DNA from: Planomonospora parontospora
Lineage (GTDB): Bacteria; Actinomycetota; Actinomycetes; Streptosporangiales; Streptosporangiaceae
Assembly: GCF_014647935.1 (NCBI RefSeq)
Contig: NZ_BMQD01000004.1
Strand: one strand, 5' to 3'
Length of the DNA: 64,000 bases
Of this stretch, positions 29,077 through 42,132 are shown piece by piece (position 1 is the stretch's first letter; every line of letters begins with the position of its first letter). The position numbers and the translations under genes are program-made. The notes under the pieces were generated by a model, which saw only the letters and a program-made list of their open reading frames with translations, was not told where the DNA came from and searched no databases.

Positions 29077-29841
29077 ATGATCACGCTTCGCTATGCGGCG
29101 GGTTCCGATGTCGGCCGGGTCCGCCAGGGCAACGAGGACTCCGCCTACGCGGGCCCCCGGTTGCTGGCCGTCGCCGACGGGATGGGCGGCCACGTGGGCG
29201 GGGAGGTCGCCAGCGCGGCCGCGGTCGCCACGGTCGCGCCCCTGGACCACGAGTGCCCGCCCGACCTCGTCGCCGCCGCGGAGAACGGTGTCCACCGCGC
29301 CAACCGGCGCCTGCGCGAGATGGTCGAGCAGGACCCGAGCCTCACCGGGATGGGCACCACGCTGACCCTGATGCTCTGGGACGGGCCGCGCGTGGCCCTG
29401 GCCCACATCGGCGACTCCCGCGCCTACCTGCTGCGCGAGGGCGACCTCTACCAGATCACCTACGACCACACGCTCGTCCAGACCCTGATGGACGACGGTC
29501 GGATCACCGCCGAGGAGGCGGCCCGCCACCCGCACCGATCGATCCTGCTCCAGGTCCTGGACGGCAGCGACACCATCGAGGTCGACCTGTCGCTGCGGGA
29601 CGCCGAGGTGGGCGACCGCTACCTGCTCTGCTCCGACGGCCTGTCCGGGGTGGTCGACGCCGACCGGCTCCGGCACGTGCTCGCCACGATCGACGACCTC
29701 GACACCGTCACCCGCACGCTCATCGAACTCGCCTGCGACGCCGGCGGCCCGGACAACATCACCTGCGTGGTGGCCGACGTGATCGACGAGCCGGGACCCG
29801 CGCAGGACGCCCCGATGATCGTCGGCGCCGCCGCGTCATAG
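29077..29841 (+). CDS. PP2C-family Ser/Thr phosphatase
   Basis: The motifs RQGNEDS...LAVADGMGGH...GTTLT...CSDGL...GGPDNIT match PP2C. The start was set at MITLRY. Confidence 0.85.
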   Translation: MITLRYAAGSDVGRVRQGNEDSAYAGPRLLAVADGMGGHVGGEVASAAAVATVAPLDHECPPDLVAAAENGVHRANRRLREMVEQDPSLTGMGTTLTLMLWDGPRVALAHIGDSRAYLLREGDLYQITYDHTLVQTLMDDGRITAEEAARHPHRSILLQVLDGSDTIEVDLSLRDAEVGDRYLLCSDGLSGVVDADRLRHVLATIDDLDTVTRTLIELACDAGGPDNITCVVADVIDEPGPAQDAPMIVGAAAS

Positions 29842-29870
29842 GACCACCGCTGCCACGAAGGGACGCCGCC

Positions 29871-29960
29871 ATGTACAAGGAATTCGCCCGCGAGGCCGTC
29901 GTCTGGCTCATCCCCGTCGTCATCCTCGTCGGCCTCGCCTACATGATCACGAGCGCCTAG
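29871..29960 (+). CDS. Possible 29-aa hydrophobic micropeptide
   Basis: MYKEFAREAVVWLIPVVILVGLAYMITSA contains one TM helix. It lies 30 nt after the PP2C stop. It is speculative. Confidence 0.3.
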   Translation: MYKEFAREAVVWLIPVVILVGLAYMITSA

Positions 29961-29989
29961 GATCCGCCGGGCCGTCCCGCCCGGTTCCC

Positions 29990-39111: not shown

Positions 39112-39195
39112 GAGGGCAGTAAAGCACTGGTTGAAGCACTTCACAAGCAAAGATGTTGTAGACCGTTTCAGCCTGGTCAACTACTCTGACTGCCT
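39112..39195. promoter_or_regulatory. Divergent promoter region (PP2C versus methyltransferase) with the inverted repeat TGAAGcaCTTCA
   Basis: aaagcactggttgaagcacttcacaagcaaag contains the 5-2-5 palindrome TGAAG-ca-CTTCA and a direct AAGCACT duplication. It has lower GC than the flanks. Confidence 0.45.
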
Positions 39196-41211
39196 ATGGA
39201 GGAGAGCCGGGACATCACCGTCAACGCGGGCGACATCGCCCGGCTCGCCGACGTGGGACGGGCCGCCGTCAGCAACTGGCGCCGCCGCCACGAGGACTTC
39301 CCGCAGCCGGTCGGCGGCACCGCCTCCAGCCCGCTCTTCTCCCTCTCCGAGGTCGCCGCGTGGCTGCGCGGCAACGGCAAGCCCTTCGAGGTCTCCCTCG
39401 GCGACCTGGTCTGGCAGCGGATCCGCACCACCGCCGACGACCTGCGGCTGGGCGGGCTGGTGGGCCGGATCGGCGCCTTCCTGCTCTTCCTGCACCGCGA
39501 GCCCGGCGCCTGGGACGAGTACGGCCTGCGCCCCCCTCCGGGACGCGACGGGCACAGCGGGGACGACGGGCACGACGGGGACGGTGAGCGCGCCGTACTC
39601 GGCGGGAACGGCGGACGGCCCCTCCCCGGGCAACCTCTCCCCGGGCGGACCCTCGCCGAGCGCGTCGCGGCCGCCACGGCCGACCTGCCCGGCTCCGCCG
39701 AGCCGCCGCCCGGTGACCGCGCCCTGCTCCGGCTGGTCGCCCGGCTGGCCGCGGCGGACGGCCCGCTGGCGGCGTTCGAGTTCCTCTGCGAGCGCTACGC
39801 CGAGGCCCACTCCCGGCAGCTCGCGGTGACCAGGGAGGACGTGGCCGCGCTGATGACCCGGCTGGTCGTCCCGGACGGCGGCACCGTGCTGGACCCGGCC
39901 TGCGGCGTCGGCACGCTCCTGCTGCCCGCGGGCACGCCGATCGGCCAGGAGCTCAGCGAGACGAACGCCCGGCTCGCCGCGGTCCGGCTGCTGCTGCGCG
40001 GCACGCCCGCCCGGATCACCGCCGGCGACTCGCTCCGCGAGGACCGGCTGGCCGGCGAACTCGCCGACGCGGTGGTCTGCGACCCGCCGTTCAACGAGCG
40101 CGCGTGGGGCTACGAGGAGCTGACCGGCGACCCCCGCTGGGAGTACGGCCTGCCGCCCCGCGGCGAGTCCGAGCTCGCCTGGGTGCAGCACTGCCTGGCC
40201 CACGTGCGGCCCGGAGGGCTGGTGGCGATCCTGATGCCCGCCGCCGCGGCCGGACGCCGCCCGGGCAAGCGCATCCGGGGCAACCTGCTGCGGGCCGGTG
40301 CCCTGCGGGCCGTCGTCAGCCTCGCCCCGGGCGGGCCCGACCTGTGGCTGCTGCGCCGTCCCGACGGGGGCCGGCCCCCCTCCCGCCTGCTGCTGGTGGA
40401 CGCGGCCGAGGACCTGTCGGCGGTGGAGCCCGCCTGGCGCGCCTACCTCGAGGACCCGGAGGCCGAGCCGTCCGGCGCCGGCCGTACGATCCGGATCATC
40501 GACCTGCTCGACGACGAGGTCGACCTGACCCCCGCCCGGCACCGCCCGCAGCAGGGCGCGCTGGACTTCGCCCGCGACTTCGCCGACGCGCTGGACCGGT
40601 TCCGGGCGGCCTCCGCCACGCTGGCGGACGCGCCTCCCGCCCTGGAGCCGCCGCTCGAGCGCCACGACCTCCCGGTCACCACGATCGGCGAGCTGGCCAA
40701 GGCCGGCCTGGTCACCGTCCTGACGGCCCCGCCGAGGATGGCCTCCGGCACCGGGCCCGTCCCGGTCCTGACCGCCGAGGACGCCGCGGCGGGCGCGCCG
40801 CCCTCTGGGGGCACCGTGCTCGACCCCGCGCTGGTCATGGTCAGGCCCGGCGACGTCGTGGCCACCGCCCTGGGCGCGGTCCGGGTGGTCGCCGAGCCGG
40901 GCGCGGCGCTGGGACCGCAGCTCACCCTCTACCGGGTGGACCCCTCCCGGCTCGACCCCCACTTCCTGGCCGGATGCCTGCGCTCCGCCGGGCGGTCCGC
41001 CCACCCCGGCTCCAGCCGGCTCGACGTGCGGCGGGCCCGGGTGCCGATGCTGCCGATCACCGAGCAGCGCCGGTACGGCGCGGCCTTCCGCGAGCTGACC
41101 GCGCTGGAGGACGGGCTCCGTGAGACGGCGGCACGGGGAGAGACCTTGATCAGGCTAAGCTTTGACGGACTGGTCGACGGCCACCTGAGGCCGTGCGACC
41201 GAGGGGTGTGA
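39196..41211 (+). CDS. HTH-domain + gamma-class N6-adenine (amino) DNA methyltransferase + HsdS-like TRD fusion (orphan M-S protein)
   Basis: The N-terminal HTH is IARLADVGRAAVSNWRRRHEDFPQP. Motif I is GTVLDPACGVGTLLL and motif IV is VVCDPPFNERAWGY. The C-terminal roughly 270 aa resemble a type I specificity-subunit TRD, ending ...RVPMLPITEQRRYGAAFRELTALEDGL. No endonuclease gene is adjacent. Confidence 0.75.
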   Translation: MEESRDITVNAGDIARLADVGRAAVSNWRRRHEDFPQPVGGTASSPLFSLSEVAAWLRGNGKPFEVSLGDLVWQRIRTTADDLRLGGLVGRIGAFLLFLHREPGAWDEYGLRPPPGRDGHSGDDGHDGDGERAVLGGNGGRPLPGQPLPGRTLAERVAAATADLPGSAEPPPGDRALLRLVARLAAADGPLAAFEFLCERYAEAHSRQLAVTREDVAALMTRLVVPDGGTVLDPACGVGTLLLPAGTPIGQELSETNARLAAVRLLLRGTPARITAGDSLREDRLAGELADAVVCDPPFNERAWGYEELTGDPRWEYGLPPRGESELAWVQHCLAHVRPGGLVAILMPAAAAGRRPGKRIRGNLLRAGALRAVVSLAPGGPDLWLLRRPDGGRPPSRLLLVDAAEDLSAVEPAWRAYLEDPEAEPSGAGRTIRIIDLLDDEVDLTPARHRPQQGALDFARDFADALDRFRAASATLADAPPALEPPLERHDLPVTTIGELAKAGLVTVLTAPPRMASGTGPVPVLTAEDAAAGAPPSGGTVLDPALVMVRPGDVVATALGAVRVVAEPGAALGPQLTLYRVDPSRLDPHFLAGCLRSAGRSAHPGSSRLDVRRARVPMLPITEQRRYGAAFRELTALEDGLRETAARGETLIRLSFDGLVDGHLRPCDRGV

Positions 41212-41238
41212 GTCCCGGGAGTCCGCGGGGAGGGCCGC

Positions 41239-42132
41239 ATGGTCATCGGCGACCGGTACGTTCTCGACGACCTCCCCCTGGGGCAGGGAGGCATGGGCGC
41301 GGTCTACGCCGGCCATGACAGGCACCTCGACCGGCGGGTGGCCGTCAAGTTCCTGCGCCTGCACACCGGTCCCGACGAGGAGCTGCAGCGCCGATTCCTC
41401 CGCGAGGCCCGCATCCTGGCCCGGCTGGAGCATCCCGGCGCACCCGTGCTGTACGACTTCGGCACCTTCGACCAGCGGCTGTTCCAGGTGATGCAGTTCA
41501 TCGAGGGCGTCACCGTGGCCGACCTGGTCAGCGAGCACGGCCCGCTCCCGGTCCCGTGGGCCGCCGCCATCGCCGCCCAGGCCTGCGCGGTGCTCTCCGC
41601 CGCGCACGCGCTCTCGATCTGCCACCGCGACCTCAAGCCGACCAACCTGATGCTCTGCCCCGACGGGAGCGTCAAGGTCCTGGACTTCGGCCTGGCGATG
41701 TTCCGCGAGACCGGCTCCACCCGGTTCACCCGGGTCGGCCAGCTGCTCGGCACCCCCGCCTACATGGCCCCCGAGCAGATCCAGCGCGGCCTGGCCGGCC
41801 CGCGCAGCGACCTGTACGCGCTGGGCTGCGTGATCCACGAGATGCTGACCGGCAGGCAGCTGTTCACCGGCCCCACCGAGTACGCCGTGTTCGAGCGGCA
41901 GGTCAACGAGCGCCCGCCGCCCGTCCCCGGCGTGCCCGGCGGGCTGGACCGGCTCATCGGGGAGCTGCTGGAGAAGGACCCCGACCGCCGCCCGGCCGGC
42001 GCCGACGAGCTCTACGAGCGGCTCCAGCGGTTCGCCGTGGACCTCCCCATGCTCCCCGGCTTCCTCAGCCCGCCGTCGTCCGCCAGCCCGGTGCGGATGT
42101 ACGCCCGCGTGGTCGGCCGCGTCCTGGCCTGA
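41239..42132 (+). CDS. Hanks-type Ser/Thr protein kinase, catalytic domain only
   Basis: The motifs LGQGGMGAVY, VAVK, HRDLKPTN, DFG and TPAYMAPE are all present. It has no TM or sensor domains and is 297 aa. Confidence 0.85.
   Translation: MVIGDRYVLDDLPLGQGGMGAVYAGHDRHLDRRVAVKFLRLHTGPDEELQRRFLREARILARLEHPGAPVLYDFGTFDQRLFQVMQFIEGVTVADLVSEHGPLPVPWAAAIAAQACAVLSAAHALSICHRDLKPTNLMLCPDGSVKVLDFGLAMFRETGSTRFTRVGQLLGTPAYMAPEQIQRGLAGPRSDLYALGCVIHEMLTGRQLFTGPTEYAVFERQVNERPPPVPGVPGGLDRLIGELLEKDPDRRPAGADELYERLQRFAVDLPMLPGFLSPPSSASPVRMYARVVGRVLA

Follow-up and report, generated by a model that had tools for sequence, protein, structure and literature searches.

Gene linkage at a flotillin, giant ATPase and methyltransferase locus of Planomonospora parontospora

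A 13-kb stretch of the Planomonospora parontospora genome carries genes for two PP2C phosphatases, a flotillin with an NfeD-like partner, a giant ATPase, a DNA methyltransferase (MTase) and a Ser/Thr kinase, and raises the question of whether genes that lie side by side also form one system. The stretch runs from 29077 to 42132 of the window, by which we mean the whole 64,000-nucleotide (nt) piece of contig NZ_BMQD01000004.1 that was analyzed (GC about 72%). The original prediction regarded its nine genes as a candidate for a single raft-anchored, phospho-regulated system for DNA modification or surveillance, with a logic like that of BREX type 2 (Pgl). According to our comparative analysis, the stretch is on balance probably a mosaic of independent units, namely a membrane-stress/proteostasis operon (module A), a separate phospho-MTase cassette (module B) and a pair made up of the phosphatase gene PP2C1 and a micro-protein gene.

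Genes were called by framing on third-codon-position GC content (GC3), domains were assigned by Pfam and NCBIfam scans, and junctions were read directly from the sequence. All nine genes were confirmed at or near the positions first proposed for them. The features are as follows.

29077–29841, + strand: PP2C1, a soluble PP2C phosphatase (PP2C_2, E 7e-11; Stp1/IreP-type, 221 bits on NCBIfam Stp1_PP2C)
29871–29960, + strand: micro-protein open reading frame (ORF) of 29 residues (aa), one transmembrane helix; 28 of 29 codons end in G or C
30001–30093, no strand: four 23-nt units in tandem, GC-rich and internally palindromic CCGCCCGGCGG (4 matches found, 0.19 expected by chance)
30100–30119: terminator-like site followed by a T-rich tail
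30125–30175, + strand: AT-rich promoter-like region (GGGAACT...CTTTAC...TATAGTC) in an AT-rich stretch at about 30110–30190
30236–30877, + strand: NfeD-like gene, first of module A (YqiJ/DUF1449-type; 3–4 transmembrane helices and a C-terminal OB-like soluble domain)
30890–33112, + strand: flotillin/YqiK-like SPFH gene, second of module A (N-terminal transmembrane helix, long coiled coil)
33109–38304, + strand: giant ATPase gene, third of module A (1731 aa from GTG 33109; DUF3686, DUF7902, AAA_5)
38314–39111, − strand: PP2C2, module B (PP2C by Pfam and NCBIfam)
39196–41211, + strand: helix-turn-helix (HTH) + N6_Mtase + target recognition domain (TRD)-like gene, core of module B (N6_Mtase, E 4e-26; PADLOC MTase_I, E 5e-91)
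41239–42132, + strand: Hanks Ser/Thr kinase gene, module B (297 aa, catalytic domain only, all Hanks motifs)

One system or several units

Every protein of the window was mapped onto 80 genome loci that encode relatives of the giant protein. These loci span several actinomycete orders (Streptosporangiales, Pseudonocardiales, Micromonosporales, Nocardiopsis and others), with 65–86% identity in the giant protein, and their gene families were defined by unsupervised clustering of all coding-like ORFs. Ten loci outside this set were added from Proteus mirabilis, a Spirochaetota metagenome-assembled genome (MAG), Vibrio, Neptuniibacter, Cellvibrio, a metagenome contig, the Pseudomonas plasmid pQBR103, Hymenobacter, Deinococcus and a Streptomyces linear plasmid; they take in Pseudomonadota, Spirochaetota, Bacteroidota and Deinococcota besides the Streptomyces plasmid. 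A second set was centered on the MTase (n = 84) and combines 80 metagenome loci (39–66% identity) with four further loci (L081–L084).

Modules A and B are unlinked at 71 of the 80 ATPase loci, which have no kinase, PP2C or MTase gene within 10 kb, and at all 84 MTase loci, where neither a flotillin nor a giant ATPase gene was found within 6–7 kb. The 10 outside loci have no kinase, PP2C or HsdM-type MTase of the window's family; an unrelated Dam-type MethyltransfD12 gene lies about 3 kb downstream in Vibrio (L087). PP2C1, PP2C2, the MTase and the kinase stand beside the flotillin operon in 8 of the 80 loci, all from Planomonospora or Streptosporangium, and because the same 8 loci also share RF3 and an oxidoreductase, we regard this co-location as ordinary synteny. 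Two extra genes separate the giant ATPase from PP2C2 in Streptosporangium. In one further locus, from Microtetraspora glauca, the PP2C-MTase-kinase block is upstream, not downstream, of the flotillin operon. The neighborhood check proposed with the original prediction was therefore borne out for flotillin and the giant ATPase, which do co-occur, but not for the MTase, the kinase and the two PP2Cs, which accompany them only in closely related genera.

One point tells against a complete separation of the modules: they lie within 10 kb of each other in three related genera and in two arrangements, so a lineage-specific functional link is possible. The PP2Cs and the kinase would then have been recruited to the flotillin-ATPase pair in Planomonospora, Streptosporangium and Microtetraspora, the modules being independent elsewhere. 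The proximity persists despite rearrangement, the two paralogues PP2C1 and PP2C2 (59% identity) flank module A, and the kinase, which has neither a sensor nor a transmembrane domain, must be regulated in trans. We nevertheless consider such coupling unlikely. Shared ancestry explains the pattern equally well, with one or two events sufficing, variable genes intervene between separate transcription units, and no conserved phospho-acceptor site was identified.

The counts given above, together with the shared synteny, make a single system of nine genes very improbable, even though all nine are contiguous in the window and eight protein-sized genes are contiguous in the 8 Planomonospora/Streptosporangium loci (7 of which also have the 29-aa ORF). 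The Microtetraspora locus, where both modules stay within 10 kb in the other order, is a further point in its favor. The genes between the modules vary, and the flotillin operon has its own promoter with a terminator-like array upstream. Defense models were compared by PADLOC scans, with curated cut-offs taken from NCBIfam. The kinase, the MTase and the AAA module do match MADS components weakly, but the scores fall far below the cut-offs (20.3 against 720 for MAD2 and 134.5 against 460 for MAD6).

The parallel with Pgl/BREX type 2 broke down on every membership feature that was tested. Module B does resemble Pgl/BREX type 2 and MADS in having a kinase, a phosphatase and an N6-adenine MTase. 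However, both phosphatases are PP2Cs, with no match to PglZ in Pfam, NCBIfam or PADLOC, and the kinase reaches 44.7 bits on BREX_PglW, for which the cut-off is 990. The MTase matches Type I-like MTase models instead of PglX, and the giant protein gives weak PADLOC P-loop matches (mad8 and IetA, E > 1e-3) and none to BrxC/PglY. Unlike the components of Pgl/BREX type 2, the ATPase and the MTase-kinase genes are not co-inherited as one locus, and unlike in Pgl or MADS, the module B MTase, including its TRD-like domain, tracks taxonomy without diversification.

The flotillin trio and its giant ATPase

Flotillin and NfeD had been proposed to be hard-wired to the giant ATPase, and this link held in every phylum sampled. 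The flotillin gene is immediately upstream of the giant gene in 79 of the 80 loci, the exception being a contig that begins inside the giant gene, and all 10 outside loci, which bring in four other phyla, keep the order small protein, SPFH protein (about 650–735 aa), giant protein. In these 10 loci, a gene for 198–284 aa (144 aa on the Streptomyces plasmid) occupies the NfeD-like position. Clustering of the 80 loci recovered the giant protein in 79, flotillin in 78 and the NfeD-like family (about 203 aa) in at least 69, while the next real family was present in 20. Divergence from the window copies is correlated between flotillin and the giant protein (r = 0.82).

The overlap read at the GTGA junction is also present: GTG 33109 overlaps the flotillin TGA (33110–33112) by 4 nt. 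Public annotation starts the giant gene 25 codons later, at ATG 33184, which gives 1706 aa. The 4-nt overlap between the flotillin stop and the longest giant ORF recurs in about 33 of 75 loci, and most of the others have a gap of at most 80 nt.

Both the low-GC promoter proposed for the operon and the repeat array that precedes it were found. Planomonospora, Streptosporangium and Nonomuraea share the promoter-like motif GGGAACT-CTTTAC-TATAGTC directly 5′ of the NfeD-like gene, and other orders retain a TAnAGTCC box there. Because the motif is conserved across genera, we assign module A a promoter of its own; a scan of this region with the sigma-70 consensus did not return a promoter. Nonomuraea loci (L037, L042, L036, L052, L063 and others) carry in addition a conserved inverted repeat, CTCAACnnnnnnTTGAGGTCAAG, just 5′ of the promoter motif and about 100–130 nt upstream of the NfeD-like start, which could be an operator or the terminator of the preceding gene.

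The NfeD-like label is based on topology and public names. The protein has no relevant Pfam match even at E 10 and none in NCBIfam; its public name is “DUF1449 / OB-fold-containing protein”, that is, YqiJ-like. Its topology and its position upstream of an SPFH gene fit NfeD/YqiJ, and it has a putative OB fold. The flotillin begins with a transmembrane helix (residues 1–34), followed by an SPFH domain, a long coiled coil rich in Glu and Ala and a tail rich in Ala, Pro and Val. Pfam does not match the window copy even at E 10. We call it a flotillin because its orthologues match Band_7 (6 of 15, at 27–83% identity, best E 8e-13), the topology fits and the public names agree (“flotillin family protein / YqiK” in NCBI/UniRef). 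Through these orthologues, it presents the flotillin arrangement of an SPFH domain after an N-terminal anchor, then a long coiled coil. Against the PDB, a sequence search with the flotillin family gave no useful match (QmcA, E 0.24) and a profile search gave zero matches. An antisense high-GC3 “ORF” inside the flotillin gene (30805–31389, − strand), seen in 57 loci, was rejected as a shadow of the Glu/Ala-rich coiled-coil coding and not a gene.

The giant protein is 100% identical to a P. parontospora “DNA repair ATPase” in public records and belongs to a family of 453 clusters at 50% identity (E ≤ 1e-30). Its dominant domains are DUF3686 (E 9e-225) and DUF7902, and its AAA_5 match is marginal (25 bits against a cut-off of 22). 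Conservation extends nearly end to end, with two low-complexity inserts as the exceptions. AlphaFold2 (AF2) models built on a 46-sequence alignment are confident (predicted local distance difference test scores of 84 and 85). They place a helix at residues 25–55 and an all-beta region at 61–418, then long helices over about 430 residues, a small beta domain, another helical region and, as the last fifth of the protein, the AAA+ module. DUF7902 falls within the helical stalk of about 430 residues. In structure comparison, the all-beta N-terminus (DUF3686) resembles beta-propellers and propeller-plus-helical proteins (Nup155-type, clathrin heavy chain, WD40), and the modeled propeller-plus-helical-stalk architecture is reminiscent of coat proteins.

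The original assignment of the AAA module as MoxR-like agrees with its predicted fold, which is MoxR/AAA_5-like and places it in the MoxR/dynein/midasin clade. Across the family, neither the Walker A motif (GPPGYGKTT) nor the sensor-1 Asn nor the candidate Arg residues vary. Walker B reads LYLDDIQH, with Asp-Asp and not Asp-Glu, in all 46 aligned homologues from actinomycetes to Vibrio (residues ~1411–1418, window ~37350–37380). The giant protein has no transmembrane segment, against one in flotillin and 3–4 in the NfeD-like protein. No DNA-binding, nuclease, helicase, protease or vWA domain was recognized in it by Pfam, NCBIfam or PDB sequence search, the last returning only P-loop-level matches (Cdc48, Rix7, RuvB). 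The inserts are lineage-specific and Gly/Ser/Asn/Thr-rich (window 36016–36100 and ~36460–36600), arise partly from 15/30-nt tandem repeats, are absent or different in most homologues and are disordered in the AF2 model.

Outside the actinomycetes, Cellvibrio, pQBR103 and Hymenobacter encode PspA/IM30 upstream of the trio and in the same direction; its gene immediately precedes the trio in Cellvibrio and Hymenobacter, and in pQBR103 it stands in the same yjfI-like gene array. The genes on the same strand upstream of the pQBR103 trio encode YjfI, PspA/IM30, a rhomboid protease, DUF2491, DUF350, DUF1190 and a GSP-synthase-like protein. DUF2170 and PspA precede the trio in Cellvibrio, where a rhomboid protease and PLDc_2 follow it. 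TelA is found near the trio in Vibrio and Neptuniibacter, and LemA in Proteus. The counts are two loci each for TelA, PLDc_2 and rhomboid protease and one for LemA. At the following positions, the trio is part of an extended array on one strand that also takes in PspA/IM30, the yjfI-like stress cluster (to which YjfI/DUF2170, DUF2491, DUF350, DUF1190 and the GSP-synthase-like gene belong), a small PLDc_2 protein and a rhomboid protease.

pQBR103: L174, 1938–7901, with L171, 3108–11091
Cellvibrio: L169, 802–11617
Hymenobacter: L172, 1472–10785

Among described systems, the closest kin of module A are the SPFH-NfeD operons and the SPFH/AAA+ partnerships; a soluble, MoxR-class giant partner is undescribed. 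Like E. coli yqiJK, B. subtilis yuaF-floT and S. aureus floA-nfeD, module A has an NfeD/YqiJ-type gene directly 5′ of a flotillin with an N-terminal anchor and a long coiled coil, and the public names of its proteins (DUF1449/OB-fold, YqiK/flotillin) match. It differs in its longer flotillin (about 670–740 aa), so divergent that Band_7 misses the window copy, and in an obligatory third gene, an AAA+ ATPase of about 1,700 codons. HflK/C with FtsH, and prohibitin with the m-AAA protease, likewise pair an SPFH scaffold functionally with an AAA+ machine at the membrane, and HflK/C regulates the AAA+ protease FtsH (PMC13086221). Unlike FtsH, however, the giant ATPase has no transmembrane helix or protease domain, falls in the MoxR/dynein clade rather than the classical FtsH clade and is encoded in the operon of its own scaffold.

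The PspA gene upstream of NfeD-like/SPFH genes in Cellvibrio, pQBR103 and Hymenobacter recalls the PspA-NfeD-SPFH module of B. subtilis (ydjFGHI) and the yjfIJKLMC cluster with its PspA paralogue; in pQBR103 it is accompanied by YjfI, DUF2491, DUF350, DUF1190 and the GSP-synthase-like gene. In contrast, no PspA gene is adjacent in the window or the 80 actinomycete loci, and the clusters described from Bacillus and E. coli do not include the giant ATPase. Band7-like domains also occur among the VMAP proteins of vWA-MoxR systems (Kaur et al., 2020). Unlike VMAP systems and the MoxR ATPases CbbQ, NorQ and RavA, the trio has no vWA domain and no fourth conserved gene that could supply a vWA partner; its AAA module is part of a giant multidomain protein, and its Walker B is Asp-Asp and not the canonical Asp-Glu.

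Taken with gene linkage, domain folds, membrane topology and genomic context, these comparisons suggest that module A is most likely a flotillin-anchored, ATP-driven remodeler for membrane stress and proteostasis, and not a device for DNA repair or surveillance. The flotillin FloA and NfeD of S. aureus act as an ATP-independent holdase of unfolded proteins (PMC11222466), and an SPFH protein of B. subtilis tethers PspA to the membrane (PMC8581546). We infer that, at the cytoplasmic face, the flotillin and its NfeD partner would oligomerize into a membrane-bound SPFH scaffold on which the giant ATPase would dock, probably as a hexamer via its AAA+ ring. ATP could then power the remodeling, release or extraction of scaffold-held clients, or else the assembly and disassembly of the scaffold. 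Candidate clients are membrane-proximal proteins, the flotillin assembly and the PspA/IM30 assembly.

Several observations weigh against this assignment. The Asp-Asp Walker B may mean that hydrolysis is slow or regulated. No client-binding, protease, nuclease or vWA domain was recognized in the giant protein. Neither the window nor any of the 80 actinomycete loci has the PspA, TelA or PLD neighbors, and a role in conflict or defense would fit TelA, PLD-family proteins and megaplasmid sites as well. The function of the DUF3686 family rests on context and fold, our literature search having yielded no paper or experiment: DUF3686, PF12458 and DUF7902 were unmentioned, “DNA repair ATPase” with flotillin was likewise unmatched, and neither the paper on SPFH evolution nor that on Pseudomonas SPFH proteins mentions an ATPase partner.

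A more specific version of the remodeler is put forward tentatively, since we think it has a small chance of being right. The flotillin-NfeD-DUF3686 trio would be a membrane-remodeling motor, in which a MoxR-class AAA+ ring on a propeller-stalk arm sits on a flotillin cage and powers the assembly, the disassembly or the release of clients of polymers made of flotillin and/or the ESCRT-III-like PspA. The giant protein would then be the missing ATP-dependent partner of flotillin, with a Vps4-like part toward PspA/IM30.

Module A could instead be a membrane-anchored anti-phage or conflict system, in which flotillin senses envelope perturbation and the giant ATPase triggers an abortive response. 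Its distribution is patchy in Gammaproteobacteria and includes megaplasmids (pQBR103, Deinococcus, Hymenobacter, Streptomyces), but the giant gene is on only 13 of 72,556 plasmid records, mostly megaplasmids or chromids, and several of these are chromids or chromosomes. At two loci, PLD-family genes whose products may be nucleases follow directly, and two loci have TelA as a neighbor, yet no defense genes recur in the 80 loci and no effector domain was recognized. MoxR ATPases and Band7-like domains do both occur in VMAP conflict systems (Kaur et al., 2020, PMC7159879); PADLOC, however, gave no meaningful match for the flotillin or the giant protein. The identity of 65–86% over 1,700 residues across actinomycete orders, a conservation that tracks taxonomy, and a window context of core chromosome (RF3, trehalose/glycogen genes, type IV pilus cluster) also argue against a conflict role, which we regard as distinctly unlikely.

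That the giant protein is a DNA-repair ATPase, with flotillin as a mere tether, is hardly credible: the DUF3686 Pfam description, the NCBI product name, weak Walker-A-region matches to RuvB and RFC and a LexA-family regulator upstream of the Hymenobacter cluster speak for it, but neither a DNA-binding domain nor a nuclease or helicase domain was found, the matches to RuvB are P-loop only (19 bits against cut-offs of 282–299), the fold is MoxR-like, the obligate partners are membrane proteins, the recurrent neighbors are membrane-stress genes and the name has no support in the literature search. The role in DNA surveillance first proposed for the whole gene set is not supported either, and nothing links the ATPase to DNA.

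The methyltransferase cassette and PP2C1

Module B is compact. PP2C2 runs toward the giant gene, the two stops lying 9 nt apart, and is divergent from the MTase gene across an AT-rich spacer of 85 nt; the kinase gene starts 27 nt past the MTase stop. The MTase is a gamma-class N6-adenine enzyme with motif I (VLDPACGVGTLL) and motif IV (DPPFNERAW). Its excisionase-like HTH is invariant, and conservation of both the HTH and the C-terminal domain extends across genera; the TRD-like C-terminus is conserved and not hypervariable, and identities track taxonomy. With no HsdR or ResIII gene near the MTase in the window or in L081–L084, and with the TRD-like domain fused, a type I restriction-modification system is not indicated, and the enzyme is an orphan MTase.

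The kinase is catalytically intact by its motifs. It is the partner found most consistently, and its conservation exceeds that of the MTase. Its conservation of 74–93% across genera is unlike that of a defense gene. It does match PD-T4-6 in PADLOC (PDLC04042, E 2e-96, a model for which PADLOC has no cut-off), and the same kinase scores 264 bits on the generic PknB model.

The kinase, PP2C and MTase had been taken to belong together, and the MTase-centered loci confirm that they are conserved as a unit with each other. Of 60 loci whose flanks are long enough, 29 have the kinase gene directly downstream of the MTase gene and about 15 more have it within about 0.9 kb, and a PP2C gene is divergently upstream of MTase homologues in 28 of 69 loci, as well as in L081, L083 and L084. 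Nonomuraea and Sphaerisporangium keep PP2C(−)/MTase(+)/kinase(+) among unrelated flanks, and a Pseudonocardiaceae MAG keeps the PP2C-MTase pair. Module B looks like a vertically inherited orphan MTase with a dedicated kinase and phosphatase, and not like a diversifying defense locus. The MTase is probably under reversible phospho-control, and plausibly serves as an epigenetic regulator. The cassette of PP2C, HTH-N6-MTase and bare kinase (window 38314–42132; L081, L084, L088–L167) is widespread in soil actinomycetes, and we came across no description of it.

PP2C1 and the 29-aa membrane peptide (29077–29960) form a third small unit. Among the 80 loci, PP2C1 is found upstream of the flotillin operon only in Planomonospora and Streptosporangium, and in P. 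corallina, about 2.2 kb separate it from the NfeD-like gene while the 29-aa ORF stays beside PP2C1. Because the repeat array and the promoter intervene, and given this gap, PP2C1 is a neighbor of the flotillin operon and lies outside it. The four 23-nt repeats are unique within the window, and the array is probably a hairpin terminator or an insulator between PP2C1/micro-ORF and the operon. The micro-protein (MYKEFAREAVVWLIPVVILVGLAYMITSA) is 79–96% conserved just 3′ of PP2C1 in seven Planomonospora/Streptosporangium loci: L001, 6749–6832; L002, 6686–6766; L003, 6838–6918; L004, 3914–3997; L005, 6789–6869; L006, 6870–6950; and L013, 6936–7019. It may be a membrane tether or a partner of the soluble PP2C. 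In the protein collection, it is present only from P. sphaerica and one JGI contig, and it appears to be unannotated in P. parontospora records.

Chromosomal surroundings and significance

The surroundings of the stretch are core chromosome, with trehalose/glycogen genes, a SARP-type regulator, a two-component system, RF3 and a type IV pilus cluster. Convergent with the kinase gene, 42213–43661 (− strand) encodes a 482-aa fusion of a phosphoribosyltransferase domain to an alpha/beta-hydrolase-like C-terminus, which is the sole member of its 90%-identity cluster. P. corallina (L004) has a relative (76% identity, full coverage) about 4.4 kb past the kinase; none was found in the other seven Planomonospora/Streptosporangium loci, whose flanks reach about 4.5–5.4 kb past the kinase. 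The type IV pilus cluster (43813–54896) is complete, with a PilB-like T2SSE protein with MshEN, a PilT-like protein, PilC, a pilin, a prepilin peptidase, PilM, PilO and a large pilin-like protein with He_PIG Ig repeats. Farther upstream are a 1175-aa SARP/BTAD + AAA_16/NACHT-type regulator (18321–21848, − strand) and a RhuM-family protein (3826–5001, − strand) in a patch of lower GC (about 61–64%), possibly the remnant of a mobile element.

The locus illustrates that plain synteny can underlie a striking juxtaposition of genes in one genome. In actinomycetes, the PP2C-HTH-MTase-kinase cassette is a candidate system for orphan DNA methylation under phospho-control. For the giant protein, the database name “DNA repair ATPase” is misleading, as there is no evidence for DNA repair. 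The mechanism of bacterial flotillins is still debated, and the best current model is that of an ATP-independent holdase with NfeD; this question would gain a concrete handle from an AAA+ partner of about 1,700 residues that is obligate and encoded in the same operon. The trio is conserved from Actinomycetota to Pseudomonadota, Bacteroidota, Deinococcota and Spirochaetota, often beside PspA/IM30, and offers a defined set of three proteins for purifying, imaging and mutating.

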